From NCBI GenBank assembly GCA_903846945.1, contig CAINCE010000073.1:13626-77625 (forward strand): a stretch of DNA of 64,000 bases, in the 5' to 3' direction. This DNA is from an uncultured bacterium (GTDB lineage: Bacteria > Patescibacteriota > Minisyncoccia > Phycocordibacterales > PALSA-1337). The translations under genes were made by a program, and so were the position numbers. This document shows, in pieces, positions 3,137-45,577 of this stretch (positions are counted from its first letter, which is position 1; every line of letters starts with the position of its first letter). The notes beneath the pieces were generated by a model that worked only from the letters and a program-made list of their open reading frames with translations, did not search any database and was not told the origin of the DNA.

Positions 3137-5350
3137 TTAGTACCTCTTTGTGAATGGCTTTTTCACCATAGGAGTTTCTTCCTTCTTTGTAAAGAAGTCT
3201 GGATTTGCACCCTTGATGGACAGATTGATCCTGCCCTTGTCGTCGACCTCCTTCACAACTACTGGCACCTTGTCACCTTCTTTCAGGTATGTAGTGACTC
3301 TCTCGACTCGGAATGGAGCTATCTCAGAAACATGTACGAGACCCTCAGCATTGGCACCGATCTTCACAAATGCTCCAAAGTCCATGAGTCTCGTGACTTC
3401 CCCGTCGAACTTTTCACCGGGCATATACTCACGAGTCATGCCGATGATGATCTCTTTTGCTTTTTGTGCAGTCTCATTCTTACCTGTGATGAATATGGCG
3501 CCATCATCTTCTATGGTGATGTCTTCTACACCCGTGACATCACGGATCTCATTGATCGTCTTTCCTCCAGAACCGATGACTAGACCGATTTGTTCAGGCT
3601 TGATCCTTATAACTAGTATCTCTGGCGCATTTACAGATATTTTTGCACGAGGTGCAGCGATCTCATTTTCTATAACATCCAATATCTTGAAACGAGCGGC
3701 TTTGGCTTTTTCGAAGGCTTCGCTGAGGATCTTTAGTGGGATACCGCCAACCTTCACATCCATCTGTACGGCCGTGATACCATTTCGTGTACCCGCAACT
3801 TTGAAATCCATATCACCATGATGATCTTCTGGTCCTTGGATGTCAGTTAATACTTTGTATTCGAGTTCACTGCTACTCATTGGGTCACGAGGGGAGGATT
3901 CGGAAATCTTACCCTCTGGTTTACCTACAGTGCTTTTTTTTGCTTTTCTCATCATGAGGCCAGATGCGATACCAGCAACTGGTGCCTTTATCGGAACTCC
4001 CCCGTCCATGAGTGCGAGTGTTGAGCCGCAAACTGAGCCCATAGAAGTTGAGCCATTCGAAGCAAATGCTTCAGAAACGAGTCTTATCGTATATGGGAAT
4101 TTGTCTTTTTCTGGGATTACTGGGACGAGCGCTTTTTCTGCGAGTGCGCCGTGGCCTATCATGCGACGATTCGTCCCTCCGACTCTCCCTGTCTCGCCAG
4201 TCGAGAATGGTGGGAAGTTGTAGTGATGCATGAACCTTTTGTTTTCTGTAAGGCTCAATCCTTCTACTACTTGTGCGTCTCCAGGAGAACCTAGTGTGAG
4301 TGTTGACATGATGTGTGTTCCACCTCTGTAAAATATTCCTGAACCATGCAATATAGATGAGATTCCGCCAGCTTGGGCAAATAGTGGTCGCACATCGTCC
4401 ATTCCACGGCCGTCTGCGCGCTTGTTACCATCTATAGCACCATCATGGAGGAGGTCATTTACTGCTTCTTCGAACACTTCTTGGGCCATCATCGTATCGC
4501 CTTCGGGCATCTTTTCCTTGAACAATGTTGCCCATTCACCATTTATCTCGGATATTTTTGCGTGTCCTGGGACTTTGCTAAATATGAATTTCTCCATTTT
4601 AGGAGAGATCTCCTTGTCGAATAGCTCTTTCGTACCAGGAGTTGGTTCCTTGATCGCGACTTCTGCCTTTGGTTTACCTATCTCTGCGACGATCTTTGAT
4701 TGCCAGGCTTGTATCTTTTCTATTTCGGTGGAGGACAATTTAAGAGCCTCATTCAATGTGCTCTCAGAAACTTCTTTACTAGCTACTTCGATCATGTTGA
4801 TCATGCCGTCTTTACCACAAGCGACCATCTCTAAACTAACACCTAGGTCCTCGCGAACTTTGTAGTCAGGGTTGATGAGCCATTCGCTATTTTTTGCTAT
4901 ACGAACTGCAGATGCAGGTCCATTCCATGGTATATCTGATACTCCGAGCGCTAGTGATGAGGCGATAACTGCGACTACATCTGGGTCATCTTGACCTATG
5001 GCGAGTGTCGTAACTATAACCTGAACTTCATTTCGCATGCGTTGATTGAATAATGGGCGTATCGTACGATCTACTATTCGACCAGAAAGGATAGCATCAG
5101 TTGATGGTCTACCCTCTCGACGCATGAATCTCGACCCCAATATTTTACCAGTTGCATAAAACCTCTCTTCGAAGTCTACTGTTAGCGGGAAAAAGTCTCC
5201 GTCTTTGAGTCCTCCCATACATGCTGTTGCTAATAATGCAGTTTCTCCATAACGAACGATGACGGAACCATTGGTCTGGTCAGCGAGGTCGTTGAACTCA
5301 GCAGAAAGTGTCTTCCCGCCTATCTCGATCGAATATTGTTTTTTGTTCAT
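3137..5350 (-). CDS. pnp: polynucleotide phosphorylase
   Basis: 737 aa; two RNase PH domains with KH and S1 domains at the C-terminus (GEKFDGEVTRLMDFGAFVKI). Confidence 0.95.
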   Translation of the reverse strand: MNKKQYSIEIGGKTLSAEFNDLADQTNGSVIVRYGETALLATACMGGLKDGDFFPLTVDFEERFYATGKILGSRFMRREGRPSTDAILSGRIVDRTIRPLFNQRMRNEVQVIVTTLAIGQDDPDVVAVIASSLALGVSDIPWNGPASAVRIAKNSEWLINPDYKVREDLGVSLEMVACGKDGMINMIEVASKEVSESTLNEALKLSSTEIEKIQAWQSKIVAEIGKPKAEVAIKEPTPGTKELFDKEISPKMEKFIFSKVPGHAKISEINGEWATLFKEKMPEGDTMMAQEVFEEAVNDLLHDGAIDGNKRADGRGMDDVRPLFAQAGGISSILHGSGIFYRGGTHIMSTLTLGSPGDAQVVEGLSLTENKRFMHHYNFPPFSTGETGRVGGTNRRMIGHGALAEKALVPVIPEKDKFPYTIRLVSEAFASNGSTSMGSVCGSTLALMDGGVPIKAPVAGIASGLMMRKAKKSTVGKPEGKISESSPRDPMSSSELEYKVLTDIQGPEDHHGDMDFKVAGTRNGITAVQMDVKVGGIPLKILSEAFEKAKAARFKILDVIENEIAAPRAKISVNAPEILVIRIKPEQIGLVIGSGGKTINEIRDVTGVEDITIEDDGAIFITGKNETAQKAKEIIIGMTREYMPGEKFDGEVTRLMDFGAFVKIGANAEGLVHVSEIAPFRVERVTTYLKEGDKVPVVVKEVDDKGRINLSIKGANPDFFTKKEETPMVKKPFTKRY

Positions 5351-5629: not shown

Positions 5630-7153
5630 CTATTTAAAATGATTCAATGTATAGTCAATGAGAGCTCCTGCATCAGTTTTCTCGTCTGGTGATTTGAGGA
5701 TGATAGTGACGATCGGTCTCTTCGTGTTTCCGACTGGAAACTCGAATACAGATAGATTGGACTCGGCAGCTGCTGTAGTTTTTCCATTCTTGCCACCGAA
5801 GAAATACTCATTCTCGATGAAGTCGTTGAAATTACCAAGATCAGAGAATCCACTGGCGCCATAGGCGTTATCTTTGAGCTTGCCTGAAGTAATATTGAAT
5901 ATAAAACTGCGATTATTGTAGATATATTTAGCAAGCATGAACAAATCCTCGGCTGTTGAAATGTTGTCTTCCGAAGCGCCAGACGGATCAGTGAAATGGC
6001 TATGCGTCATGCCTATGGAGGCAGCCTTATCATTCATGTGTCGAATGAAATCGTCTCGTCCATAATATCGGGCTATAGTTTCTGCTGCCTCATTTGAGGA
6101 TTCCATCAGCAGAGGGAAAAGAAGCTGGTAGATAGTGTATTGCTGTCCCGGTTTCAACCGAGCTTTGGACGTATAGATTATAGCCGCTTTGGGTACAGTC
6201 GCAGTATTGTCTATGTTTATGTATTCTGTTGCTACCAATGCGGTAACTAATTTTGTGATAGATGCGATAGGTACAGATTCTGTGGAATTCTTGCTTGTGA
6301 AAACGTGATTGTTCTGTAGGTCAGCAGAAAGATATATAGGTGCAGAAAGTGACAGAACACTGTCTACGTACGAGAAATTATCAGGTGAAAAACTTTGTTC
6401 GAAGACGAGTACGGGAGTCCCAACGTCAATGGCATCGTAAACCTTTTCCGCGTCGTTGGTATCTAAACGTATGCATCCGCCCGTGTAGGCTTTTGATGTG
6501 AGGGTGCCATCCGGGTAATACGTTCGGCCGTGAATATAGAAATTTCCTTGGAAATTCATACTCCATGGCATCCAAACATGTCCCATTCCAGAAAAGTGAG
6601 ATTTTTCTTTACTACTGATTTTGTATAATCCTGCAGGAGTTTCCCACCATGAACCGGGCCGTCCTTTTGTAACGATTGGTACTTCCAAAACCAAAGTACC
6701 CTCTTTGTACGCTTGAATTTTCATTGCAGATAGATCAGCTTCAAGAAAATCAGCCTTACTATCGATAAATTGCTGTTTGACCTTGCCGAAAAAGTCAGGA
6801 TTAGATAAAGCTGGTTGCGCACCGTATGTAAATTGAACTTGTTGCAATGGCGGAGTTTCAGGAAGATTTACTGTATAGTTGAGAGTTTTATTTCCATAAG
6901 CGTAGGAAAATCCTCCAATGCCCATAACTGTTAATATGATAAGTATGATTGTTACGGCCGCTGGAACTTCTGAATGCAGAGTTCTCCAGAAGGAAAAGTG
7001 ACCAAGTTTCCCAGGAAATGAACTGTAGTAAAAGGCTTCTTTAATGTCGTCTTCAGTCCATCCATCCATAATTAGTTCGTTGCGGATTGCATCTATTGGC
7101 ATACCTGCACATTGTCTCGTTGTCACATGATTTACGAGTTGCTTATGATACAT
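5630..7153 (-). CDS. fusion protein: L,D-transpeptidase (YkuD) domain plus serine-type D-Ala-D-Ala carboxypeptidase (PBP5-like) domain
   Basis: 507 aa; N-terminal TM helix; HGRTYYPDGTLTSKAYTGGCIRLDTNDAEKVYD matches the YkuD catalytic His/Cys motif; C-terminal half has SITK (SxxK), SSN (SxN) and KNGKTTAA (KTG-like) motifs. Confidence 0.65.
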   Translation of the reverse strand: MYHKQLVNHVTTRQCAGMPIDAIRNELIMDGWTEDDIKEAFYYSSFPGKLGHFSFWRTLHSEVPAAVTIILIILTVMGIGGFSYAYGNKTLNYTVNLPETPPLQQVQFTYGAQPALSNPDFFGKVKQQFIDSKADFLEADLSAMKIQAYKEGTLVLEVPIVTKGRPGSWWETPAGLYKISSKEKSHFSGMGHVWMPWSMNFQGNFYIHGRTYYPDGTLTSKAYTGGCIRLDTNDAEKVYDAIDVGTPVLVFEQSFSPDNFSYVDSVLSLSAPIYLSADLQNNHVFTSKNSTESVPIASITKLVTALVATEYINIDNTATVPKAAIIYTSKARLKPGQQYTIYQLLFPLLMESSNEAAETIARYYGRDDFIRHMNDKAASIGMTHSHFTDPSGASEDNISTAEDLFMLAKYIYNNRSFIFNITSGKLKDNAYGASGFSDLGNFNDFIENEYFFGGKNGKTTAAAESNLSVFEFPVGNTKRPIVTIILKSPDEKTDAGALIDYTLNHFK

Positions 7154-10808: not shown

Positions 10809-11612
10809 ATGAAAATCATTTCTTGGAATGTAAATGGTATCCGTGCCGTTATAAAGAAAGGTTTATTTGCGCCATTTATCGAAAAATATCAGCCGGATAT
10901 TCTATGTCTCCAAGAAACCAAAGCGGAAAAGGGTCAGGTAGTCATAGACCTACCCGAATACTCAGAGTATTGGAATTCGGCTGTAAAGAAGGGTTATTCA
11001 GGTACAGCCATATTTACGAAGACGAAGCCAATCGATGTGATGAATGGCCTTCCAGATGATATCTGTGAGAAATATGACCTAGTCGCCGATGAATATGGTG
11101 ATCCTAGAACAGAAGGTCGTGTCATCGCTGCAGAGTTCGCTGATTTCTATGTAGTCACTGTCTATACTCCGAATGCCAAGGATGATCTTAGCCGTATTCC
11201 CCTTCGACACAACCAGTGGGACCCGGCGTTTCTGGCATATTGCCAGCAGTTGGAGGAGAAGAAACCTGTTATCTTCTGTGGTGACTTGAATGTTGCCCAT
11301 ACTCTGGATGACCTCGCTCGACCGAAGGAAAATGAAGGTTTGAAAGGATTTACGGCCGAAGAGCGCGAAGGGTTTGATAATTTTGTAAAAGCTGGCTTTG
11401 TAGATACATTCAGGATGTTCAACAAAGGCAACGGTCACTATTCCTGGTGGTCTCATTTCGCTAATGCTCGTGCTAGGAATATTGGCTGGAGGATAGATTA
11501 CATACTCGTCTCTGCTGCATTGAAAGACAGAGTGAAGTCGGCAGCTATTTACCCTGAAGTACTAGGTTCAGATCATTGCCCGGTGGAGGTGGTCGTAGAA
11601 TTGATAGTTTAA
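10809..11612 (+). CDS. xth: exodeoxyribonuclease III (AP endonuclease)
   Basis: MKIISWNVNGIRAV...LCLQETK...WWSH...SDHCPV: ExoIII/APE1 family motifs. Confidence 0.9.
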   Translation: MKIISWNVNGIRAVIKKGLFAPFIEKYQPDILCLQETKAEKGQVVIDLPEYSEYWNSAVKKGYSGTAIFTKTKPIDVMNGLPDDICEKYDLVADEYGDPRTEGRVIAAEFADFYVVTVYTPNAKDDLSRIPLRHNQWDPAFLAYCQQLEEKKPVIFCGDLNVAHTLDDLARPKENEGLKGFTAEEREGFDNFVKAGFVDTFRMFNKGNGHYSWWSHFANARARNIGWRIDYILVSAALKDRVKSAAIYPEVLGSDHCPVEVVVELIV

Positions 11613-14219: not shown

Positions 14220-14291
14220 GCCCTCGTGGTGAAATGGATATCATTACTGTCTTCGGAACAGTCGTTGGGGGTTCGAATCCCTCCGGGGGCA
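14220..14291 (+). tRNA. tRNA-Arg (anticodon TCG)
   Basis: Hand-folded 72-nt cloverleaf: acceptor GCCCTCG/CGGGGGC, D-loop with GG, anticodon stem ACTGT/ACAGT, loop CTTCGGA, T-arm GGGGG-TTCGAAT-CCCTC, discriminator A; no encoded CCA (ACAA follows). Confidence 0.75.
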
Positions 14292-14471
14292 CAAATCAAT
14301 AGGTCCGCTAGCGAGCCAACTGCTTGGCTCGCGTCTATGGATTCGAAAAGTCTGAGCATATTTCCAGCCATTTGGGTGGCTGGAAATGCGAAGACTGTAC
14401 CGTTCCCGTAGGGAAAGAATCCCGTAAGGAGGCGGGGTCGCAGGCGAGCATAGCAATGCGAGACCTGTGAC

Positions 14472-14490
14472 CGAATCCCTCCGGGGGCAC
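14472..14490 (+). repeat. 19-nt exact copy of the tRNA-Arg 3' end (cgaatccctccgggggcac), here followed by CA giving CACCA
   Basis: Identical to 14274..14292; no cloverleaf can be built around it, so it is a fragment or att-like direct repeat. Confidence 0.7.
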
Positions 14491-14787
14491 CAAAGGCCAC
14501 TTCTTGTTTCCTAATTCGCTTTGCTCATAAGGAAACAATAGACTTGTCCCGTAATAAGCAGATTTTGAATGATTCATGGCTATGTTAAGCCACATATTGA
14601 TAATTCTTAAAATTTGTCAATTTTACGGCTAAGGTAAGCCCTGATAAGTGGTTTTTTCCTTATTAGGGGACTTGTCTAATGTCGGGCACCCATTTCTTTC
14701 ACGTGAAACATCGAATCACTAGGTTTCATAATATGGCCCAATTATTCCCTCTTGAAAGTGAACAACTGCTAGTATATAATACAAGGC

Positions 14788-15525
14788 ATGCGAAAAGATA
14801 GAGAACAAGCTACAGTCCTTAGGAAGTCTGGGATGTCTTACTCAGACATCATTGCTCGTATGAGTGTACCTAGGAGTACTTTGTCGAAGTGGTTCCATGA
14901 CCAGAAGTGGTCAAATGATATCGCAATAGAAAGTGCTACTAGGGCAAGGAATAGTGGGGCGATCAGGTTCGCTGTTTTGAACACGGTTCGAAAGGGTCGT
15001 CTAGATAATCTACGCAAACAGGCGAGGCAAGATGCATTGCTAGATTTCGAGGATTTGAAATATCATCCACTATTTCTCGCTGGAGTTATGGCGTACTGGA
15101 TGCATGGTGATATAAAGTCCCCAAATAGGGTAAGTTACTCGAGTACTGATCCTGACAAGATCAGACTATTCAAATCGTTCCTAGAGAAGATCTGTGGCAT
15201 TGAGAAGCCTAAGGTGTGGATCAACCTCCCGAGAGGGAATTTAACATTTTTGGCAGAGTCATTTTGGGCAGAAAAGTGCAGTATGAGTGTGGATGACCTT
15301 GGAAAAACTATGATTTCTGGCGGATTTGATGGTTTTCCCAGTGGAAACACAACGATTTCAACTGATTCAAAGAGACAAAGGGTCATAAAGATGGGGAATA
15401 ATCACGGAGTTTGCAATATGGTTGTAAATAGTGCATACTTGAAAAATAAATTTTTGAAATGGGTGGAACTTTTGAAGGATGATCTGCTGAATGAGAGGTA
15501 TTTGAACGATGTTTCACAAATTTAG
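14788..15525 (+). CDS. hypothetical protein with N-terminal resolvase-type HTH
   Basis: 245 aa; LRKSGMSYSDIIARMSVPRSTLSKW HTH; weak LAGLIDADG-like stretch FLAGVMAYWMHGDIK (not confident). Lies between tRNA-Arg and tRNA-Gly. Confidence 0.4.
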   Translation: MRKDREQATVLRKSGMSYSDIIARMSVPRSTLSKWFHDQKWSNDIAIESATRARNSGAIRFAVLNTVRKGRLDNLRKQARQDALLDFEDLKYHPLFLAGVMAYWMHGDIKSPNRVSYSSTDPDKIRLFKSFLEKICGIEKPKVWINLPRGNLTFLAESFWAEKCSMSVDDLGKTMISGGFDGFPSGNTTISTDSKRQRVIKMGNNHGVCNMVVNSAYLKNKFLKWVELLKDDLLNERYLNDVSQI

Positions 15526-15578
15526 ACACGGTTCGTAGTGTAGTGTGTGAAAATCGAGTTCGAGAGTTGAAAATTCAT

Positions 15579-15649
15579 GCGGGTATAGTTTAATGGTAGG
15601 ACGCGTCCTTGCCAAGGACGAGTTGGGAGTTCGATTCTCCCTACCCGCA
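15579..15649 (+). tRNA. tRNA-Gly (anticodon GCC)
   Basis: 71-nt cloverleaf: acceptor GCGGGTA/TACCCGC, anticodon stem CGTCC/GGACG, loop TTGCCAA, T-arm GGGAG-TTCGATT-CTCCC. Confidence 0.8.
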
Positions 15650-15796
15650 CAATGATTCGTGAGCAGGCATGTTATGCCTGCGAATGGAACATCATTGAGA
15701 CGAGGGAGGGAGAAGCGAACGCCGGAGCGTGCGAGGCTAGTAAGCCGAGCCGCGAGGCGGTGCCCAGACCGAACGAGCGGGTAGCGAGTGAGAGTC

Positions 15797-15814
15797 GCGG
15801 GCGATTCTCCCTAC
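15797..15814 (+). repeat. 18-nt exact copy of the tRNA-Gly 3' end (gattctccctacccgcac)
   Basis: Direct repeat of 15632..15649; a second 13-nt repeat aatgattcgtgag occurs at 15650..15662 and 15869..15881. Confidence 0.7.
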
Positions 15815-16100
15815 CCGCACTACTTCGCAAATCAGCTAATCGCTGATTTGCTTCGAAGTGCAGGCACAATGATTCGTGAGGAATAGATGTCCTAAATAAA
15901 TGGCTTAAATTCGTGGAGTAAGGGACAGAACTGTGGATAAGTCTGTGGATAGTGTGTATAAGAGACGAATAGTATGGCTTATTATCGTCTTTTAGGTATT
16001 TTTATGCACCGCCTGCAAGCTAGCGAAGGAAAGGGATATTGGATAGTATGGCTTTATTGCAGAGCATTGAGCAATTACAAATTAATAGACCTTCAAAGTC

Positions 16101-16478
16101 ATGAGTACAAGATCAAAAGGAAATATCGGGGAAAATGTCGCTTGCATATTCCTTGAGAAAAGGGGATTCAAGATCGCTGTGAGGAATTATATGAAGAAAT
16201 GGGGTGAAATAGATATTATTGCTATAAAAGACAAAGTAGTCCATTTCTTTGAAGTAAAGAGTGTGACTTTTAACCCTGTGCATGACTCTGTATCTCATAA
16301 AGCTGAGGATAATGTTCACGGATTCAAAGTTAGACAGATCCGTAGGATGGTCGAGACATTCCTAGAAGAGACGAACAGGGGACTCGATGCGGAGTTTCAT
16401 TTTCATGTATTGTGTGTGTATTTGAACATGGAGACTAGGGGCGCGCGAGTGAAATGGATCAAGGATTTGGTTCTCTGA
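16101..16478 (+). CDS. YraN (UPF0102) family endonuclease
   Basis: 125 aa; GENVACIFLEKRGFKIAVRNY...GEIDIIA...VHFFEVKS matches YraN/UPF0102. Confidence 0.75.
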   Translation: MSTRSKGNIGENVACIFLEKRGFKIAVRNYMKKWGEIDIIAIKDKVVHFFEVKSVTFNPVHDSVSHKAEDNVHGFKVRQIRRMVETFLEETNRGLDAEFHFHVLCVYLNMETRGARVKWIKDLVL

Positions 16479-16570
16479 TTAGATAGCATGTCGGTTTGTC
16501 GGGCTCAATGAAGAATATTCAAACGGAAATAATTTGTAGAATCGCTATAGTGTGCTAACATGACAACATT

Positions 16571-16643
16571 CGGGGCGTGGTGTAACGGCTAACATGCCTC
16601 TTTTGGGAAGAGGTGACTCCGGGTTCGAATCCCGGCGCCCCGA
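16571..16643 (+). tRNA. tRNA-Pro (anticodon TGG)
   Basis: 73-nt cloverleaf with C1:G72 pair typical of bacterial tRNA-Pro; anticodon loop TTTGGGA; T-arm CCGGG-TTCGAAT-CCCGG. Confidence 0.8.
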
Positions 16644-16708
16644 CAAGGTAGATAATGTAAAATTGAACTTCCTCCACACTCTCCTACGCCCCCTCCGTCG
16701 CCGAGGCT

Positions 16709-17230
16709 ATGGAGGGCAAGAAGGCTTCGGAGGGCAAGAAAATCAAAATGGAAAGCTATAAAAAAATAATAAATTTCTTCGATAAGTTTGAGGATAGAGT
16801 TCGCGGACAGTTGAGTCGCTTTCCGATTCTGTACACTTTTATCGGTGGTATTGCCATCGTCTTGTTCTGGAGAGGTGTTTGGCATACGGCGGATATATTA
16901 CAGGCACAAGGAGGTATTTTAGGATGGCTGTTCTACGAACCGATAAACATGTTGATCGTTCTTGTCATATTGCTCGCTACAGGATTGTTCGTTTCATATT
17001 TCATCGGTGATACGATACTCATGAGCGGACTCAAGGGAGAGAAGAAGGCGACAGAGAGGACTGAGAGGGAGATCAAGGAAGAGGAAAAACAGATCCAGGA
17101 GGAAGAGGTGCAGATCAAGCAAGAACAGAAAGAACTGAAAGAAATAAAGGCGTCGATCAGTGACATGAAAGCGGAAGTTGATGAGATCAAGGAGATCGTG
17201 GAGAATGTCGAAAATCAGCATCACAAATAG
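16709..17230 (+). CDS. membrane protein with K/E-rich coiled-coil C-terminus, hypothetical
   Basis: 173 aa; two TM helices then a highly charged EEKQIQEEEVQIKQEQKELKEIK repeat region. Confidence 0.45.
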   Translation: MEGKKASEGKKIKMESYKKIINFFDKFEDRVRGQLSRFPILYTFIGGIAIVLFWRGVWHTADILQAQGGILGWLFYEPINMLIVLVILLATGLFVSYFIGDTILMSGLKGEKKATERTEREIKEEEKQIQEEEVQIKQEQKELKEIKASISDMKAEVDEIKEIVENVENQHHK

Positions 17231-17342
17231 ATTTGGTCCCTTACTAATTCGAGGATATTTTGAAATTACAAAAGACTTCGTGGCCAGTCTTGTTACAACG
17301 CAAAATTATTGCTAGCATTGACTTTGCTCTCAAACAAAACAT

Positions 17343-17413
17343 GCGGGATTAGTTAAATGGTATAATAACAGTTTTCCAAACTGTGGTTGGGAGTTCGATT
17401 CTCCCATCCCGCA
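17343..17413 (+). tRNA. tRNA-Gly (anticodon TCC)
   Basis: 71-nt cloverleaf: acceptor GCGGGAT/ATCCCGC, anticodon stem ACAGT/ACTGT, loop TTTCCAA, T-arm GGGAG-TTCGATT-CTCCC. Confidence 0.8.
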
Positions 17414-18577: not shown

Positions 18578-19351
18578 CTAATACGTATCTTTTATCGAAT
18601 CAAACATGAAATCAAACATCTTTTCGAACGTTTCGCGTACGGATGCGTTTTCTATGATGGTGATGATAAGTCCACTTTTGAAGTCTGTTATCGACACTTT
18701 GTCTCCGTAAATGATGATTTGTGCTGGGATATAGAAACCATCTGGTATAGTTTTGCGTGTGACGTTGCGGGCCTTGTCTTTCTTTATCAATACGTCCATA
18801 GGAACATCCTCTCTCTTTGGGCCGATGAGTTTTACTTTGATGCCAATTTTCGCTTGTTTTTCGATGTGGGCGCGTAATATCGATGCGGTATCGATATCTT
18901 TGTGATCAAGTAAAGATCTTATCAGTTTTATATCTTTACCTTCGGCTAATATGTCATTATACATTTCCTTTAGTCCATCTGACCCTTCCAGGAATTGAAT
19001 GTTCGGTTTACCAGAAAGCAGGTTAAATTTGGAAGATAGTAAGCCAAATGAATCGTTAAATACAATGTTTGCTTGATCACTTGTTTGCTTTTCTTCTTCT
19101 AGGATGATCTTGATCCTGTTTGGGTGAACAGGGAAGAACATAGATATCTTTCCAACATCATCTCGCTTGGTAATGATACCCTTTTCGACCAGTTGAGCTA
19201 GAACTTTGTAGCAAAGTGCCCGGCCCAGGTTCGTTTTTGTCGAAATAACTCTGGCATTGCATAGTCCATTTTCAAGCAGAAATAAATATATCTTTGACTG
19301 CTCTCTAGTCAGTCCTATGTCGACAAGTGTTTTTTCATCATAGTTTGTCAT
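18578..19351 (-). CDS. TrmB-like HTH transcriptional regulator
   Basis: 257 aa; N-terminal wHTH (LTREQSKIYLFLLENGLCNARVISTKTNLGRALCYKVLAQLVEKGIITK); paralog of 28074..28853 in inverted orientation. Confidence 0.6.
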   Translation of the reverse strand: MTNYDEKTLVDIGLTREQSKIYLFLLENGLCNARVISTKTNLGRALCYKVLAQLVEKGIITKRDDVGKISMFFPVHPNRIKIILEEEKQTSDQANIVFNDSFGLLSSKFNLLSGKPNIQFLEGSDGLKEMYNDILAEGKDIKLIRSLLDHKDIDTASILRAHIEKQAKIGIKVKLIGPKREDVPMDVLIKKDKARNVTRKTIPDGFYIPAQIIIYGDKVSITDFKSGLIITIIENASVRETFEKMFDFMFDSIKDTY

Positions 19352-19442: not shown

Positions 19443-19471
19443 TTGACAAATTCTGTCATCGTGCTATAAAT
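19443..19471 (+). promoter_or_regulatory. sigma70-like promoter candidate
   Basis: TTGACA (19443..19448), 16-nt spacer, TATAAAT (19465..19471), upstream of 19582..19965. Confidence 0.45.
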
Positions 19472-20022: not shown

Positions 20023-20075
20023 TTGCTTCTCGGAATGTGTATTCCGACTGATGAGTCTGAAAGGACGAAAAGCAA
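20023..20075 (+). ncRNA. hammerhead ribozyme, type III (HHR1)
   Basis: TTGCTTC / stem I TCGGAAT-GTGT-ATTCCGA / CTGATGAG / stem II GTCT-GAAA-GGAC / GAAA / AAGCAA; stem III 6 bp; predicted cleavage after UUC at 20029. Confidence 0.8.
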
Positions 20076-20370: not shown

Positions 20371-20418
20371 CTGTCTCGGAATATCGTTCCGACTGATGAG
20401 TCTGAAAAGACGAAACAG
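20371..20418 (+). ncRNA. hammerhead ribozyme, type III (HHR2)
   Basis: CTGTC / stem I TCGGAA-TATCG-TTCCGA / CTGATGAG / stem II GTCT-GAAA-AGAC / GAAA / ACAG; stem III ACAG:CUGU; cleavage after GUC at 20375. Confidence 0.8.
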
Positions 20419-20851: not shown

Positions 20852-20956
20852 GATTTACCTGCTGTAACAGGTTGATTTAACCGGACGAGTCTTTACAGAG
20901 ATTCCTCCACTTCATTGAGCCGTATGAGTGAAAGATTCTCGTCGGTTCATAGAGTT
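20852..20956 (+). ncRNA. conserved structured RNA element, copy A (unclassified)
   Basis: About 105 nt near-identical to 22629..22733: hairpin ACCTG-CTGTAA-CAGGT; hairpin GACGAGTCTT-TACA-GAGATTC..; palindrome CTCAATTGAG; hairpin ATGAG-TGAAAGATT-CTCGT. Covarying base pairs between the two copies. Confidence 0.55.
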
Positions 20957-21140: not shown

Positions 21141-21315
21141 TCGGCTTAGTAACACCTCTAACCAAGGTTGCCACAAAATTCCTCCTTCGCTCTAATGAGC
21201 TATGGAGGGACAAGCCGGTGGTGTAAATCAAGGTAAAGAGTTTTGTCCCCGTCTTTCTCAGAAAAGACGGAGAGCCTAGAGGAAGCAGAGCCTCACCGAG
21301 ATATATCTCTCGGTT

Positions 21316-21388
21316 CTGTCTCGGAATATCGTTCCGACTGATGAGTCCCTCTACATCCTATTCGGGGTGAGAGTGAAGGACGAAACAG
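21316..21388 (+). ncRNA. hammerhead ribozyme, type III with extended stem II (HHR3)
   Basis: CTGTC / TCGGAATATCGTTCCGA / CTGATGAG / extended stem II GTCC-CTCT-A-CATCC-TATTC-GGGTG-AGAG-TGAA-GGAC / GAAA / ACAG. Upstream hairpin CCGAGAT-ATAT-CTCTCGG at 21295..21312. Confidence 0.75.
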
Positions 21389-21410
21389 AGTTGGTCTTTA
21401 AAATCAAATT

Positions 21411-21765: not shown

Positions 21766-21796
21766 GCGTAATTCCGAGGGGAAGCTCCTCGGCGCC
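21766..21796 (+). repeat. motif GCGTAATTCCGAGGGGAAGCTCCTCGGCGC (hairpin)
   Basis: Near-identical copy on the minus strand at about 25266..25296; both sit between a gene end and a hairpin+HHR. Confidence 0.5.
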
Positions 21797-21814
21797 TGGT
21801 GAGCGGAAACTACT

Positions 21815-21834: not shown

Positions 21835-21836
21835 TT

Positions 21837-21909
21837 CTGTCGCGAAGTTGAACTTCGCCTGATGAGTCCCTCTACATCCTTTTCGGGATGAGAGTGAAGG
21901 ACGAAACAG
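21837..21909 (+). ncRNA. hammerhead ribozyme, type III with extended stem II (HHR4)
   Basis: CTGTC / stem I GCGAAGT-TGA-ACTTCGC / CTGATGAG / same extended stem II as HHR3 / GAAA / ACAG; followed by the same acagagttggtctttaaaat spacer. Confidence 0.8.
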
Positions 21910-21926
21910 AGTTGGTCTTTAAAATT

Positions 21927-22628: not shown

Positions 22629-22733
22629 TATTTACCTGCTGTAACAGGTTGATTTTAACCAGACGAGTTTTTACAGAAACTCGTCTACTCAATTGAGCTG
22701 TACGAGTGAAAGATTCTCGTCGGTTCATAGAGT
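22629..22733 (+). ncRNA. conserved structured RNA element, copy B (unclassified)
   Basis: See copy A; hairpin here is GACGAGTTTT-TACA-GAAACTCGTC (the C:G pair in A is U:A in B) and ACGAG-TGAAAGATT-CTCGT (U:G in A becomes C:G in B). Confidence 0.55.
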
Positions 22734-23375: not shown

Positions 23376-24032
23376 TTATTTAAATCGCCATTCATCCTCG
23401 ATATGTTTCCGAATGATCTTTTTGTAAATAATTCCATCTTGTTTGTTACCCTCATAACTCCTCCGTATGCTCCCAGCGATCATATCAGCCAATTGGATGA
23501 GCACGTTATCTTTTGAGTCTGAAAACTTCAAATTTGAAATCACCTTAATTCCATTTGAGTTAAGAGATTTTCGTAGGTATGATGAAAAATTCCTCCGGAA
23601 AGCCCTGTCTCCACTACCATCAAGCTTGATCTTTGCTTCTAGAATACTCATATCACTGTGTTTCAGTAACATCTTTATGGAATAACTATAAAATGAATTC
23701 TTGTCATTTTTTAACTCATCACTATGTAGGATGGTCTTGTCTATAACCAGTGTTCTAACTTTAAATGCAAACACGTTGATAGTATTCATGAAACCTAGAC
23801 GGACTTTTTTGTTTGACTTGTTAAACTTGAATTCCATCGTATCTGGAAATCCGATACTTCTCCTAAACTCTTTTATGGCCACGGCAACCTTTTCGGCTTC
23901 TAACGGATCGTCGAATATGACAGCGGCAATAACAAAAATCTTGCTCGATCCTCTTTCGAATTTGAATCCAGCATCACCGGAATCATCGATGAATACTAAA
24001 GTTTGCGAATTTTGTGTGTGTTTGCTAAGCAT
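23376..24032 (-). CDS. DUF3800 family protein
   Basis: 218 aa; LVFIDDSGDAGF at the N-terminus and LIQLADMIAGSI near the C-terminus are DUF3800 hallmarks; AT-rich gene inside a GC-rich island. Confidence 0.65.
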   Translation of the reverse strand: MLSKHTQNSQTLVFIDDSGDAGFKFERGSSKIFVIAAVIFDDPLEAEKVAVAIKEFRRSIGFPDTMEFKFNKSNKKVRLGFMNTINVFAFKVRTLVIDKTILHSDELKNDKNSFYSYSIKMLLKHSDMSILEAKIKLDGSGDRAFRRNFSSYLRKSLNSNGIKVISNLKFSDSKDNVLIQLADMIAGSIRRSYEGNKQDGIIYKKIIRKHIEDEWRFK

Positions 24033-24400: not shown

Positions 24401-24940
24401 TTATACCGACGTCTTCTGGAGCCGCGCCATCGCGTGCTCCCACGCGACCGCAGCAGCGGTCGCATCGTACATGGGGTGGTGCGCCACCCCCGCGAACGGC
24501 ACCGCGATGCCGTTCTTTTTGTTATATGCGTCCACTGAGGACGCGTCCTCGCTCAGTGCGAGGAGCGCCGTGCCTAGGTCATGTAGGCACGGATAAGGGC
24601 CCTCGAAGGCCCGTTCGTCGAGATTTCTCTCGACGCAGCGGCGGAACAGCCCCGATTCCACGGGGCTACCGCAATGGGCGATCACAGTCGCCCCTACCTT
24701 TTGGGCCTGCCAAAAGGCCCAGAAGGCCTCTTCCAACTCCTCCGAAGAGGAGTGGGAGACCGGCATCCCCGCCAGAGCGGGGAGAACGTTTGCACGCACC
24801 CAGCCGTCCGACACGGCTGAGTCGGCGATCCGGCCCTCGAAGCGGGCCGTTTCCACACCGTCCACCCGGACGGTCGCGGCGATTGCGAATGACGGGCCAT
24901 ACAGCCCGTCAACTTCTGCGTCACAACTAAAGATTTTCAT
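24401..24940 (-). CDS. DEDDh-type 3'-5' exonuclease (DnaQ-like fold), putative
   Basis: 179 aa, GC-rich; IFSCDAEVDGL (Exo I D-x-E), AHCGSPVESGLF (Exo II-like), HHPMYDATAAA (Exo III H-x4-D); GAGG 13 nt upstream of ATG. Confidence 0.5.
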   Translation of the reverse strand: MKIFSCDAEVDGLYGPSFAIAATVRVDGVETARFEGRIADSAVSDGWVRANVLPALAGMPVSHSSSEELEEAFWAFWQAQKVGATVIAHCGSPVESGLFRRCVERNLDERAFEGPYPCLHDLGTALLALSEDASSVDAYNKKNGIAVPFAGVAHHPMYDATAAAVAWEHAMARLQKTSV

Positions 24941-24954
24941 AATATTCCTACCTC

Positions 24955-25135
24955 TCTATTCGTCCAACAATCTCTTTCTAATCACACATCGTGCGACTAC
25001 ATCCCTCCTCCAGGAATGCTCAACTGAGAAAAAAGACCACCGAAGTTTCGATTGGTAGAATGTATTCATTATGTTCGAGCTTATCTTCTGTAATGATAAT
25101 GAATACGTTCCACCAATCGATAGTAGTAGAAACAT
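24955..25135 (-). repeat. 181-bp conserved 5' leader, copy 1, upstream of the DEDDh exonuclease gene
   Basis: About 95% identical to 27186..27366; contains a roughly 24-bp imperfect hairpin (cgattggtggaacgtattcattat ... ataatgaatacattctaccaatcg). Confidence 0.7.
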
Positions 25136-25146
25136 ATGATATTTTT

Positions 25147-25197
25147 CTGTTTTCGTCCTTTCGGACTCATCAGTCGGGATACACATCCCGAGAACAG
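25147..25197 (-). ncRNA. hammerhead ribozyme, type III (HHR5, minus strand)
   Basis: Minus-strand read: CTGTTC / TCGGGA-TGTGTA-TCCCGA / CTGATGAG / GTCC-GAAA-GGAC / GAAA / AACAG; stem III 5 bp; cleavage after UUC. Preceded on the minus strand by hairpin GGAGAAGCTTTTGGTTAAAAGCTTCTCC (25199..25226). Confidence 0.75.
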
Positions 25198-25335
25198 TGG
25201 AGAAGCTTTTAACCAAAAGCTTCTCCATTTAACCTATGAAGTATTTTCCGCGTGCCTCATCATCACGCGCCGGGGAGCTTCCCCTCGGAATTACGCGGTA
25301 TGTTTATAGTCTTACCGATAAGACTTGAAGTGCTA

Positions 25336-25671
25336 CTACGGCAGCAATTGGTTGCCGTGTTGCTCACGGAGCTTGGCCATTCGTTTGGCCACCCTCCTCT
25401 GCATCGCCGCATACCTGTGCGGCGGTTCGGTGAATCCGGGAACTTCCCGGTTATGTGCGAGGTCGTCGCACATCTGCTCCACCATGATGGCAAGGATGAA
25501 CTCCTTGTCATCATGGGTGAATTCCTGGGACTCGCCCAGGTCCTGTGTCCAAACCAAGTATGGTCGCACTAGCGACTCATACTGGCTGCCGATACTGATT
25601 CCGGCGGCAGTACCCAAATTTTCTGATGTATTCATGCAACCTATTTCCGATCCTTCAGAAACAAATTGCAT
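25336..25671 (-). CDS. hypothetical acidic protein
   Basis: GC-rich ORF; start uncertain (the track's N-terminus MEKLLVKSFST is a translated palindromic hairpin); DKEFILAIMVEQMCDDLAHNREVPGF. Confidence 0.3.
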   Translation of the reverse strand: MQFVSEGSEIGCMNTSENLGTAAGISIGSQYESLVRPYLVWTQDLGESQEFTHDDKEFILAIMVEQMCDDLAHNREVPGFTEPPHRYAAMQRRVAKRMAKLREQHGNQLLP

Positions 25672-25812
25672 GAATACATCTAAGACTCTAAGAGCCAACC
25701 TCCTGGGAGACCGGCTCAATAAAGTGGAGAAGCTTTTAACCAAAAGCTTCTCCATTTAACCTTGCGACGATTTATCCAGTAACGGAAAGGAAGTCGCTGT
25801 TCCTTTGTTGTA

Positions 25813-27185: not shown

Positions 27186-27366
27186 TCTATTCGTCCAATA
27201 ATCTCTTTCTAATCACACATTGTGCGACTACATCCCTCCTCCAGGAATGCTCAACTGAGAAAAGAGACTATCGAAGTTTCGATTGGTAGAATGTATTCAT
27301 TATGTTCGAGCTTATCTTCTGTAATGATAATGAATACGTTCCACCAATCGAGAGTAGTAGAAACAT
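27186..27366 (-). repeat. 181-bp conserved 5' leader, copy 2, upstream of P2
   Basis: See 24955..25135. Confidence 0.7.
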
Positions 27367-28073
27367 GCACACGCTTAGGAATCGTTTTATACGATCCCTC
27401 TTATCATGCCGATCTAGAAGTTTGTTACGCTATCGGTCAGCATGACGAAGAGGAATAACATCTAGTGGTATTGCAAAAAAGCAATATTATTCCACCAGTT
27501 TCCTATCATTCGCTATTTCATTTTCAAATTACTTCCTTGATCTTACCGTCACTCCCGATCTCTCTAAAAGATCGGCTTCTGGTTACAAGGACATTTCTGG
27601 GAGCAAATGTGGTTAGCATTCACTCACAGCAGATGTCATTGCGACACTGTGTAGATATCGGACTATAGTCATCACTACCCGTCGGGAGTGACCTTTCTCA
27701 TAGATCTGGTTCGTTTGCAGGGAACCGTCACTATGTAAGCGATATCTGGCAAACAAGATAACAAATGGCTGTTGTCCTTCTCACTCTCTCCTCTTTACCA
27801 TGCTTAGCGGGGTCAAACCCGAGGCCATGGTGCCTGCCCAACATAGGGACTAGAGGTGAAAAGCAATCATTCACTATCTTCATTACTGTAAGGAACTATC
27901 GTTTCCGAACTTCATCTCATCTGGCATAATCATAACATTTATTAACTAGAATGTCAATACACAATGACACGGAACTGTGAGATGTCAGAATAGCCCGTGA
28001 CAAAGCCAGAATAATGGCTTATCCACACATTGTACTTGTCACAAATCCGTGACGATGATATGCTATATTCATC

Positions 28074-28853
28074 ATGTATGAACAAACACTTACAAATGCG
28101 GGGCTTTCAAAAGAGCAGGCATCCGTTTATCAGCTCCTCATGCAGGGAGGATTGACTCCTGCAGGCGTTATTAGCAAAAGGGCGGCCCTAAAGCGTGGTT
28201 TGACGTATAAAGTCCTAGAACAGCTCATAAATATGGGTTTAGTTCAGAAAAGGGACGATCTAGGCAAAATAACGCTATTTCAAGCATCTCATCCTGGCGT
28301 ATTGAGGAAACTTACTGAAACCAAGGCCGAGGAGGTAAAGAACGCCCAAGTATCATTGGAATCAGTGATGGGTAAGATGGTATCAGACTATAATTTGGTG
28401 ACGGGGAAGCCAAATGTGCAGTTTTTCGAAGGTTTGGAGGGGGTAAGGAGGGTATTGGATGATTCTCTGAGTGCTACTGGTGTGATCTATTCATATGCAG
28501 ATATTGAATCAATCGAGAAATATATACATGGGGTTAACGAAAAATACGTTGAAAAGCGTGATAAGTTCAATATCAAAAAGAAAGCAATAATACTAGATAC
28601 GCCATTTGCACGTGATTTTTTGAAAGATTACCATCGAGAAACTACTGATATCAAGCTTATCAAACATGATTCACCTCCATTTCATACAGTTATGCAGGTT
28701 TACGACAACAAGGTTAGTTATATTACGCTGTCTGAAAAGGAAATGATCGGTGTTATCATAGAAGACCCGCACATCTTTGAGATGCATAAATATCTGTTCG
28801 AATATTCTTGGGATAAGGCGGAATCATTGCCGAAACTAGATACTCCTAAATAA
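28074..28853 (+). CDS. TrmB-like HTH transcriptional regulator
   Basis: 259 aa; LSKEQASVYQLLMQGGLTPAGVISKRAALKRGLTYKVLEQLINMGLVQK; paralog of 18578..19351. Confidence 0.6.
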   Translation: MYEQTLTNAGLSKEQASVYQLLMQGGLTPAGVISKRAALKRGLTYKVLEQLINMGLVQKRDDLGKITLFQASHPGVLRKLTETKAEEVKNAQVSLESVMGKMVSDYNLVTGKPNVQFFEGLEGVRRVLDDSLSATGVIYSYADIESIEKYIHGVNEKYVEKRDKFNIKKKAIILDTPFARDFLKDYHRETTDIKLIKHDSPPFHTVMQVYDNKVSYITLSEKEMIGVIIEDPHIFEMHKYLFEYSWDKAESLPKLDTPK

Positions 28854-44566: not shown

Positions 44567-45577
44567 TTAATGCCCCTTGACGTGTTTGCTGATGGACTCC
44601 GCATCTAAACTATAAGCTCTAACAAAGGAATCGTCCACATGAGCATACAGAATACCCTTACCTCTATCGACTTCTACGAATTGACTAGCAAAAGTGATCG
44701 TCTTTGCCTCACTATCTCTGATGAGTGGTTCTGGTGATACCCAATCAATGACCCCATTTTCATAGTCATAGATAAATAGGCCTATTGAAAATATTCCGTA
44801 TTTTATCGTATCACCAACTCTCATGTTAGCTTCACGCCCGTTCATCACACCTAGTAATTTTCCTTCTCCTACATCGATGAAATCTCTAGAAAATAGTGGT
44901 CCAGGGGAAGCGTGCCCACCGATCCAAGGAATCTCGTGTTCAGCAGGGTGAAATACTATCTCTCCAAATTTCCAGTTTTTCCCCATATCGTCAGCCACCG
45001 CGAGTCTCACGACAGAATATGTAAAGTCACTTTCTGTTTTGCCTGATTCGACGAGGTTGTATCTAAACCCTTGTTTGTTTATAGGTGATATAGATAACTC
45101 TTTTGCACCACCTTGTTTGTCAGCCATGAGTACAGGCATCGTCATCTCAAGTGAGTCTAGGTCTCTGCCAACTGCATGACCTAGGTGAATCTTGGTATTG
45201 TGTTCGAGTTTATCTATGAGGGGAAGGGTAAAATATAAATGCATCAAATCGGTCTTTTCATCAATCCAGATATCAGGATCTTCAAGACCGATGAAATCCA
45301 ACCCGTCTTCGATGAGTTTACTTATGATTTCTTTCTCATTTTTTATATTTAAACGCTCACCTATTTGAAAAGATTCGAGTGAATTGCCTATTATCTTATG
45401 TAACTCACTTCGGTCGATGTATCCATGGACTTGGACATCACCTTCACGACTCGTTATGCACCTCGCGACCCCTTCTCTGTAATTTACTCGTGGGTCGAGT
45501 GAGATTGCCATCATATGTGTGAATCGTGGATTGGTATCTATCACTCTACCTGTATGCTGAATGTATCGGTTGTTCAT
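44567..45577 (-). CDS. hypothetical protein
   Basis: 336 aa; no confident family assignment. Confidence 0.45.
   Translation of the reverse strand: MNNRYIQHTGRVIDTNPRFTHMMAISLDPRVNYREGVARCITSREGDVQVHGYIDRSELHKIIGNSLESFQIGERLNIKNEKEIISKLIEDGLDFIGLEDPDIWIDEKTDLMHLYFTLPLIDKLEHNTKIHLGHAVGRDLDSLEMTMPVLMADKQGGAKELSISPINKQGFRYNLVESGKTESDFTYSVVRLAVADDMGKNWKFGEIVFHPAEHEIPWIGGHASPGPLFSRDFIDVGEGKLLGVMNGREANMRVGDTIKYGIFSIGLFIYDYENGVIDWVSPEPLIRDSEAKTITFASQFVEVDRGKGILYAHVDDSFVRAYSLDAESISKHVKGH

Follow-up and report, generated by a model that had tools for sequence, protein, structure and literature searches.

Hairpin-preceded type III hammerhead on the minus strand of a two-armed patescibacterial gene island, and its relatives in phages

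In the parts of Perreault et al. (2011; PMC3088659) that deal with prophages and phages, clustered hammerhead ribozymes are described as flanking genes, processing into gene-length mRNAs is proposed for them, and the tandem hammerheads tested are reported to have cleaved both in vitro and in E. coli. The present analysis concerns a hammerhead, designated HHR5, found in a 64,000-nt stretch of DNA (hereafter the window; positions 13,626 to 77,625 of contig CAINCE010000073.1, assembly GCA_903846945.1) from an uncultured bacterium of the Patescibacteriota. HHR5 is the minus-strand member of a group of five hammerheads (HHR1 to HHR5) which, like those treated in the same parts of PMC3088659, are canonical, intergenic and located among co-oriented, mostly uncharacterised genes of phage type. 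The island carrying them differs from those systems in being built of two convergent arms, with hammerheads on each strand, in its host, a Saccharibacteria-like member of the candidate phyla radiation (CPR), and in the long structured leader that follows HHR5. The passages of PMC3088659 searched for the word 'hairpin' make no mention of a hairpin upstream of the ribozyme, and literature searches on hairpin-hammerhead coupling and on hammerheads in Saccharibacteria or Patescibacteria returned nothing relevant. Because ribozymes of this class were already reported between phage genes in 2011, HHR5 on its own adds little; what is modestly new is the systematic partnering of the ribozyme with an upstream hairpin and, likewise to a modest degree, its modular exchange with an uncharacterised motif behind the same hairpin.

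The nearest relatives of HHR5 in cultured phages are those of PaP3 (AY078382.2, 45419-45503) and Clew-1 (PQ790658.1, approximately 1012-1064), which share with it the type III topology, a 7-bp stem I with a GUGU loop, a 4-bp stem II and a hairpin abutting the 5' end. In the passages of PMC3088659 that list active core-variant ribozymes a PaP3 hammerhead is included, which may or may not be the site at 45419-45503. The LUZ24/PaP3-like copies, carried by 51-72 Pseudomonas phages and 87.8% identical to HHR5 over 41 nt, have a U.U opposition at 10.1-11.1 and an AAAA loop on stem II, whereas HHR5 has a canonical G-C pair and a GAAA loop. Moreover, the phage hammerhead overlaps the next start codon, a feature not shared by HHR5 with its 206 nt of leader; in Clew-1 (L263, 396-441) it is the 3' strand of stem III that overlaps the start codon of the next gene. 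Two further systems invite comparison on grounds of function. RiboJ is a synthetic insulator composed of a hammerhead and a hairpin and employed to standardise 5' untranslated regions (UTRs), in which self-cleavage frees the folding and translation of the downstream 5' UTR from the upstream context; its extra hairpin lies downstream of the ribozyme, while that of HHR5 lies upstream, would be kept by the 5' product, and is a natural arrangement that recurs in phages. At the RNase III sites between the early genes of phage T7, to be seen together with the 3' stem-loops that stabilise mRNAs, the cut leaves a protective hairpin on the upstream message; unlike these sites, HHR5 is predicted to be cut by the RNA itself, so that a host RNase would not be needed.

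HHR5 occupies positions 25197..25147 of the minus strand, as read from the sequence and recovered with the Rfam model RF00008, a descriptor scan, thermodynamic folding and covariation analysis. Its stem III has five base pairs, with the 5' strand CUGUU (25197-25193) paired to AACAG (25151-25147), and is followed by C17 (25192), the last base of a UUC triplet, the predicted cut falling between 25192 and 25191. Stem I (UCGGGAU/AUCCCGA, 25191-25185/25180-25174) comprises 7 bp closed by a GUGU loop and leads into the core CUGAUGA (25173-25167, C3 to A9), a 4-bp stem II with a GAAA loop (GUCC-GAAA-GGAC, 25166-25155) and the GAA (25154-25152) that provides G12, A13 and A14. The core is complete, with C3, U4, G5, A6, N7, G8, A9, G12, A13, A14, the A15.1-U16.1 pair (A25151-U25193) and H17 all in place, and the three core-adjacent pairs are canonical (10.1-11.1, G25166-C25155; 1.1-2.1, U25191-A25174; 15.1-16.1, A25151-U25193). 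Stems I and II are closed by loops and stem III is open, which is the topology of type III, and the Rfam alignment concurs. The location, the 5-bp stem III and the UUC triplet are thus those given in a preliminary description of this DNA.

Several measures support the assignment. The minimum free energy (MFE) structure predicted by RNAfold for 25240..25140 (minus strand) consists exactly of the upstream hairpin and the three-way junction (z = -5.3). RF00008 matched HHR5 over its full length (model positions 1-54) with 37.6 bits in permissive mode, corresponding to E = 6.2e-5 in a two-strand scan of 24 kb with all families and E = 1.8e-6 in a scan of 701 nt; HHR5 has the consensus core and three helices of this family, although its loops are minimal and its stem II is shorter than the model consensus. 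For the pattern CTGATGA-N6-36-CGAAA the window has six occurrences where 0.54 would be expected, a count reached in none of 100 shuffles, and five of the six are full hammerheads. Core consensus, covariance-model match, thermodynamic fold and the covariation among 42 sequences described below bear out the earlier claim that the minus strand holds a complete hammerhead of type III, and HHR5 is most likely a genuine ribozyme of this type, predicted to be active.

A search pattern derived from HHR5, HHR1 and the copies in the Komeilibacteria locus L013 retrieved 56 stretches from IMG/VR, representing 42 distinct 51-nt sequences. In these, 88.9% of the cells that should pair do so, versus 59% in column shuffles, and the covariation score is 0.82 versus 0.20 in shuffled alignments (reached in 0 of 500) and 0.05-0.09 when the 3' partners are slid out of register. 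Twelve pairs show double changes, four of them in stem III, five in stem I and three in stem II. In the L013 copies, stems I and II are fully compensated. HHR5 is a member of this populous, covarying phage subfamily, most members of which have a short stem III (4-6 bp). The viral members sit between co-oriented open reading frames (ORFs), at a median of 53 nt from the end of the upstream ORF and 24 nt from the start of the next. The loops of HHR5 (UGUGUA and GAAA) are invariant across the subfamily, yet they were preset in the search pattern, so that their conservation is not independent evidence; HHR2 to HHR4 have other loops. As a separate observation, 29 of the 42 sequences (viral contigs L057-L112) have a non-canonical 10.1-11.1 pair (U.U, A.A or C.A) in an otherwise perfect core, a peculiarity shared by the PaP3/LUZ24-like phage copies.

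The same comparison bears on a relic reading of HHR5, in which recombination would have spread a selfish or decaying ribozyme along with the hairpin, and this copy would have no role in expression of the neighbouring genes or would have lost the ability to cleave. HHR5 is 93% identical to HHR1 over 45 nt and could on that ground be a recent duplicate; the sister genome L005 does without HHR5, and there is no linkage of the ribozyme to the family of the exonuclease gene that follows it (see below). Against this, every core nucleotide of HHR5 is intact, and the difference from HHR1 in stem I is a compensatory G-C/A-U exchange, and stem III has been wholly replaced and is still paired. Pairing appears to be under purifying selection in the whole subfamily, and the intercistronic placement is the rule in phages, so that a mere relic seems to us very improbable.

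Immediately ahead of HHR5 on the minus strand lies the hairpin GGAGAAGCUUUUGGUUAAAAGCUUCUCC (25226..25199). RNAfold adds the pair U25227-A25198 and thereby widens it to a 13-bp stem, UGGAGAAGCUUUU-GGUU-AAAAGCUUCUCCA (25227..25198), with a folding energy of -18 kcal/mol (z = -4.5), and the hairpin recurs unchanged in the joint fold with HHR5. Its last paired base, A25198, directly adjoins C25197, at which stem III begins, which leaves a spacer of 0 nt and agrees with the direct succession of hairpin and ribozyme reported earlier. The other four hammerheads, all on the plus strand and all recovered by Rfam and the descriptor scan, have the same arrangement: HHR1 (20023..20075), the closest paralogue of HHR5, is preceded by a 7-bp hairpin, HHR2 (20371..20418) by one of 9 bp, and HHR3 (21315..21389) and HHR4 (21835..21911), both with an extended stem II, by hairpins of 6 and 8 bp, respectively. 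The notion that the hairpin-then-hammerhead order is used on both strands of the island thus holds for all five ribozymes, the hairpins being 6-13 bp long and ending 0-2 nt before stem III. The two hammerheads of L013 likewise follow hairpins of unrelated sequence and then a single A (spacer of 0-1 nt).

The association extends to viruses. The 50 nt that precede the ribozyme were folded in 39 non-redundant viral cases and compared with 2340 random 50-mers taken from the same contigs. The mean MFE was -14.7 kcal/mol in the viral relatives and -6.6 kcal/mol in the controls (Mann-Whitney p = 1.8e-14), and values of -12 kcal/mol or lower were found in 77% of the cases versus 9% of the controls. 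In the cultured Pseudomonas phage Clew-1, a structured stem abuts the 5' end of the hammerhead. An upstream hairpin therefore proves to be a general property of the HHR5 ribozyme subfamily in phages.

One role that such a hairpin could have is to serve the active ribozyme itself, by stacking coaxially on the 5-bp stem III and shielding the fold from pairing with upstream coding RNA as it is unwound by ribosomes. The zero spacer between A25198 and C25197, the spacer of 0-1 nt in L013 and the stem III of only 4-6 bp in most of the subfamily are in line with such an aid to folding, as is the proximity of the upstream structure, whose end is no more than 3 nt from the ribozyme in 54% of the viral cases and 17% of the controls. 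However, in a large subgroup the hairpin is 5-16 nt away, which rules out stacking there, an identical hairpin precedes elements that are not hammerheads, and stems of up to 13 bp are far longer than a folding aid requires. We consider this role rather unlikely to be the explanation of the pairing.

The reading we prefer, and regard as fairly likely from the sequence, is that self-cleavage punctuates a polycistronic minus-strand transcript, with the hairpin protecting the 3' end of the upstream mRNA. The minus arm begins with a putative promoter, TTGACA-N17-TATGAT (27957..27929), in a region conserved in L005, and continues with approximately 550 nt of non-coding RNA, leader copy B, the gene P2 (27172..26786; MJ1673 family, paralogue of P1 in the plus arm), a 203-aa gene, an approximately 99-aa gene (25635..25336, with its ATG at 25635), the hairpin, HHR5, leader copy A, the exonuclease gene (24940..24401) and a DUF3800 gene (24032..23376). 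Between 27172 and 23376 every plausible gene is encoded by the minus strand, and the sign of the GC skew flips at approximately 23.3 kb, where the two arms meet, in keeping with arms that are transcribed and encoded on opposite strands. Transcription of the minus strand across HHR5 is thus supported indirectly. It would start near 27957..27929 and run through P2 and the 203-aa and approximately 99-aa genes into those for the exonuclease and the DUF3800 protein; the emerging ribozyme would fold and cut after C25192. The upstream RNA would then end in the 13-bp stem-loop, six further nucleotides and a 2',3'-cyclic phosphate, and the stem-loop would impede 3'-5' exonucleases as a terminator hairpin does; hairpins of terminators and REP elements at 3' ends are known to impede 3' exonucleases. 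On the other side of the cut, the RNA would begin with a 5'-OH nucleotide that is held in stem I from the outset, and would continue through the structured 181-nt leader into the exonuclease cistron. Hairpin and ribozyme would in this way form a host-independent mark to 'cut and continue' that does not stop RNA polymerase, each cistron would obtain defined and protected ends, and the folding of the leader would be insulated from upstream RNA. Because the cut would be made by the RNA itself, no host RNase would be needed, which fits the occurrence of such elements across phyla.

Several points weigh against this reading of HHR5 and its hairpin. At the curated threshold Rfam reports zero hammerheads: all five island ribozymes score 37-42 bits, below the RF00008 gathering score of 48.5 bits, and HHR5 with its 37.6 bits is accordingly missed. 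No tertiary contact between stems I and II, on which fast cleavage at physiological Mg2+ depends, could be demonstrated in HHR5. HHR5 is also atypical in having 206 nt of leader after it, versus approximately 24 nt in the viral relatives. About a quarter of these relatives lack a strong upstream hairpin, and one viral subgroup has, in place of an abutting hairpin, a canonical A-tract/U-tract terminator situated 5-16 nt upstream of the ribozyme. The presence of the same hairpin without a ribozyme implies that it is not dedicated to the hammerhead. Finally, in hosts that rely on RNase J1 as their principal 5' exonuclease, a 5'-OH end can destabilise RNA, as known for the glmS ribozyme of Bacillus, so that any benefit of the cut to the downstream mRNA would depend on the host.

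The occurrences of the hairpin without a ribozyme are instructive. An exact 40-nt duplicate of the hairpin module of HHR5 is located 527 nt upstream, at 25762..25723 (minus strand), before another conserved RNA motif, ACUUUAUUGAGCC...GGCUCUUAGAGU, hereafter the sister motif, and a near-identical hairpin precedes the exonuclease gene in the sister locus L006, where there is no hammerhead. The sister motif has the form [variable hairpin]-A-CUUUAUUGAGCY-[variable hairpin]-RGYUCAUAGAGU, and the hairpin sequences covary. It is present at four places in the window (20880-20955 and 22658-22733 on the plus strand, 25762-25685 and 24302-24228 on the minus strand) and elsewhere in L005 (9370-9455), L006 (3555-3640 and 4900-4985), L007 (four sites) and L242-L262. 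Among nine distinct instances, from the four island places and the sister loci, the front hairpins are unrelated in sequence, and RNAalifold predicts that ACUU/GAGU and UGAGCY/RGYUCA pair around the variable insert. A strict metagenome scan gave 17 further distinct matches, 15 of which have an abutting variable hairpin, while the remaining two have the look of coincidental or coding matches. Wherever individual copies were inspected, the motif was some tens of nucleotides ahead of a start codon and shortly before the ribosome-binding site (RBS), a position like that of the hammerheads, so that it may be their functional analogue. From this follows the possibility that the hairpin is a general cassette-boundary module behind which hammerhead and sister motif are interchangeable, the motif being a new small self-cleaving ribozyme or the target of a dedicated endoribonuclease; in our estimate this is unlikely, but if true, phages and CPR bacteria would widely share a way of punctuating mRNAs, by a hairpin and a cutter, that does not depend on the host.

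Searches for a known identity of the sister motif gave nothing convincing in Rfam. Resemblance to domain V/VI of group II introns was limited to one copy (17.8 bits, E = 0.44), the other copies lacking the domain V bulge and the GNRA loop; no match to domains D1-D4 was obtained, no connection emerges from a paper on permuted group II introns, and this identity was rejected. Also discarded, on inspection by eye, were a twister-like reading of the GCGUAAUUCCGAGGGGAAGC element, which had no Rfam support, an integron attC site, for which a GTTRRRY-like box is present but the arm orientation is inconsistent and an integrase is missing, and a K-turn in the internal loop of the motif. A loose viral scan for the ACUUUAUUGAGC motif produced 120 matches, none in the expected CTYN context, and these were taken as chance.

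The sequence after HHR5 also corresponds to what had been described. Leader copy A (24955..25135, minus strand; 181 nt) lies between HHR5 and the start codon of the exonuclease gene, beginning 11 nt after the ribozyme, and forms with leader copy B (27186..27366, minus strand), located before P2, a direct repeat of 97% identity. Within copy A, which folds with z = -5.9, there are an imperfect hairpin of 25 bp (25120-25048) and, close to the RBS, one of 9 bp; in L005 the latter differs in sequence and retains its pairing. Rfam, descriptor and model searches detected no hammerhead ahead of 27186-27366. The proposal that the two copies provide a natural comparison with and without a ribozyme is nevertheless borne out in part only: copy B does lack the ribozyme, but the comparison is not clean, as copy B is not at the 5' end of its transcript. 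Between the putative promoter at 27957..27929 and leader B lies the non-coding stretch of approximately 550 nt (27920-27367, minus strand), possibly a structured 5' UTR or a non-coding RNA, with no match in Rfam. Of this region, the 400 nt upstream of leader B are nearly identical in L005, the hairpin 27575..27555 being swapped there and still paired, and the fold has z = -3.9. Being preceded by conserved RNA of this length, leader B offers a weaker comparison than proposed, and the two copies differ in more than the ribozyme. In L005, moreover, the exonuclease gene is promoter-proximal and has no ribozyme, so that the difference between the copies reflects the position of the cassette in the operon. 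A parallel to the duplicated leader is seen in L013, where an AT-rich repeat of approximately 230 nt with hairpins and a TATAAT follows each hairpin-hammerhead unit (6616-6850 and 10909-11145) and precedes two different genes.

The duplicated modules raise the question of whether the hairpin is simply a cassette boundary, acting as a weak terminator or recombination module, with the leader containing a promoter of its own and HHR5 only trimming read-through, so that the exonuclease mRNA would not as a rule come from the cut. The exact duplication of the 40-nt module and its recurrence in L006 before other sequences are consistent with this, as are the different cassettes found at the same locus in sister genomes, the location of many viral relatives just after canonical terminators, and the TATAAT-containing repeat of approximately 230 nt after each L013 ribozyme. 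The duplicate hairpin (25754..25725), which is followed by CUUUAUUGAG and thus by CUUUAUU, is flagged as terminator-like by the terminator scan. The hairpin of HHR5, by contrast, is followed by CUGUUCUC and goes unflagged because there is no U-tract; as a rho-independent terminator it was rejected, the stem being present but the U-rich tract absent. Nor is a separate promoter favoured: inside the leader there is no sigma-70-like promoter, the sole match overlapping the RBS, and the TATAAA that immediately precedes leader B is part of a hairpin loop and has no -35 element. Candidate sigma-70 promoters inside the leader or the sister motif were discarded for variable or wrong spacing. The compensatory RNA change in the leader and its z of -5.9 speak for a 5' UTR and against a promoter. 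A boundary of this kind, with HHR5 reduced to trimming, is in our view distinctly improbable, and punctuation of the transcript by self-cleavage remains the preferred reading.

The first cistron after the predicted cut encodes a protein of 179 aa (24940..24401, minus strand) whose designation as a DEDDh exonuclease is backed by the fold and, less firmly, by the motifs. Its sequence has no match in Pfam or in the PDB; the AlphaFold2 (AF2) model (pLDDT 94.5) was aligned by Foldseek with RNase T, Pol III epsilon, DnaQ, Cap18 and TREX1 (probability 1.0, TM 0.65-0.70), which gives it the RNase H-like DnaQ fold and suggests a 3'-5' exonuclease-like protein. Invariant in the family are D7, E9, E95, H154 and D159 (H-x4-D), and the third acidic Exo-motif position is apparently E and not D, judging from the sequence alignment only. 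Approximately 145 homologues are distributed over Patescibacteria, Proteobacteria, Oligoflexia, Actinomycetota, Bacillota and phage contigs. The covariance model of the ribozyme was run on 61 sources, namely the loci of the exonuclease family and the window, and outside the window it found hammerheads in L013 only; near-identical sister contigs of the window, scanned separately, do contain them. A tie of the ribozyme to the exonuclease gene was hence rejected, since beyond the window and its sister contigs only L013 among the 61 sources carries the ribozyme. Permissive Rfam scans of 13 exonuclease loci showed no ribozymes, but they also missed the two clear L013 hammerheads and so are not evidence of absence. 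In L005, the exonuclease gene is 89% identical and is the first gene of its arm, preceded by the leader and the upstream sequence of copy B without a ribozyme, which indicates that the hammerhead goes with the internal operon position and not with a particular gene.

The island, which is phage-like and taken to be horizontally acquired accessory DNA, extends over approximately 8.5 kb (approximately 19.4-28.0 kb of the window) and has a GC content of approximately 50%, versus approximately 39% in its flanks. The plus arm proceeds from a promoter-like TTGACA/TATAAA near 19445 through P1 (MJ1673 family) and small ORFs separated by HHR1 to HHR4 to a DUF3800-IX RNA and a terminator. This RNA (RF02968; 23284-23352, plus strand) scores 43.1 bits, above the gathering score, is followed by an intrinsic terminator, and adjoins the 3' end of the DUF3800 gene in convergent orientation. 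In the passages of Weinberg et al. (2017; PMC5737381) on DUF3800-associated RNA motifs, no self-cleavage is reported for DUF3800-I and hammerheads in such loci are not mentioned; the DUF3800 gene and the DUF3800-IX RNA place the island in a wider neighbourhood of described type. It is bracketed by divergent paralogues of a TrmB-family regulator (18578-19351, minus strand; 28074-28853, plus strand), and its flanking genes, which include RNase Y, HU and TrmB, suggest a saccharibacterial affiliation, as do the closest genome records. At the same site, L005 (TrmB at 4311-5093) carries other cassettes, in the order exonuclease gene, genes for proteins of 235 and 582 aa, and DUF3800 gene; the locus therefore seems to be a hot spot of variable content, and no integrase is seen there. 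Four tRNA genes (58-69 bits) lie upstream of the island at 14220-17413 (plus strand), spread over approximately 3.2 kb with other sequence between them.

Pfam and PHROGs returned nothing for most of the island proteins, and the approximately 99-aa product encoded upstream of HHR5 has no family match; the mechanically predicted ORF of 139 aa for this cistron begins inside the duplicated hairpin, at 25755. Its likely start codon at 25635 is enclosed by a 26-bp imperfect hairpin, GAUGUAUUCAUGCAA...UUGCAUGAAUACAUC (25625-25680, minus strand), which may be a translational control element of this ORF. In its 3' UTR, ahead of the hairpin of HHR5, there is a conserved 37-nt element, GCGUAAUUCCGAGGGGAAGCUCCCCGGCGCGUGAUGA (25260..25296, minus strand), an inverted repeat of which a 92% identical copy lies ahead of HHR4 in the other arm (21766-21802, plus strand). 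This element, of the form GCGUAAUUCCGAGGGGAAGCUCC(Y)CGGCGC..UGA, is thus found approximately 35-70 nt upstream of both HHR4 and HHR5 (25296-25260, minus strand), and neither copy has a match in Rfam. A second element shared between the arms, 78 nt long and 78% identical, AAAUUCCUCCUUCGC...GGAGGGACAA..., occurs just past stop codons at 21167-21244 (plus strand) and 26750-26673 (minus strand).

The island documents five ribozymes on two strands in the genome of a CPR bacterium, all five of which are missed at the curated threshold of Rfam. To the processing idea of Perreault et al. (2011) the recurring hairpin adds a rationale for where the ribozymes are placed, and it suggests a testable rule, namely that the cut falls just after a protective hairpin. 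The hairpin-hammerhead pair could serve as a natural design for the insulation of operons, and the exchange of ribozyme and sister motif behind the same hairpin provides a concrete candidate for a new RNA-processing element.

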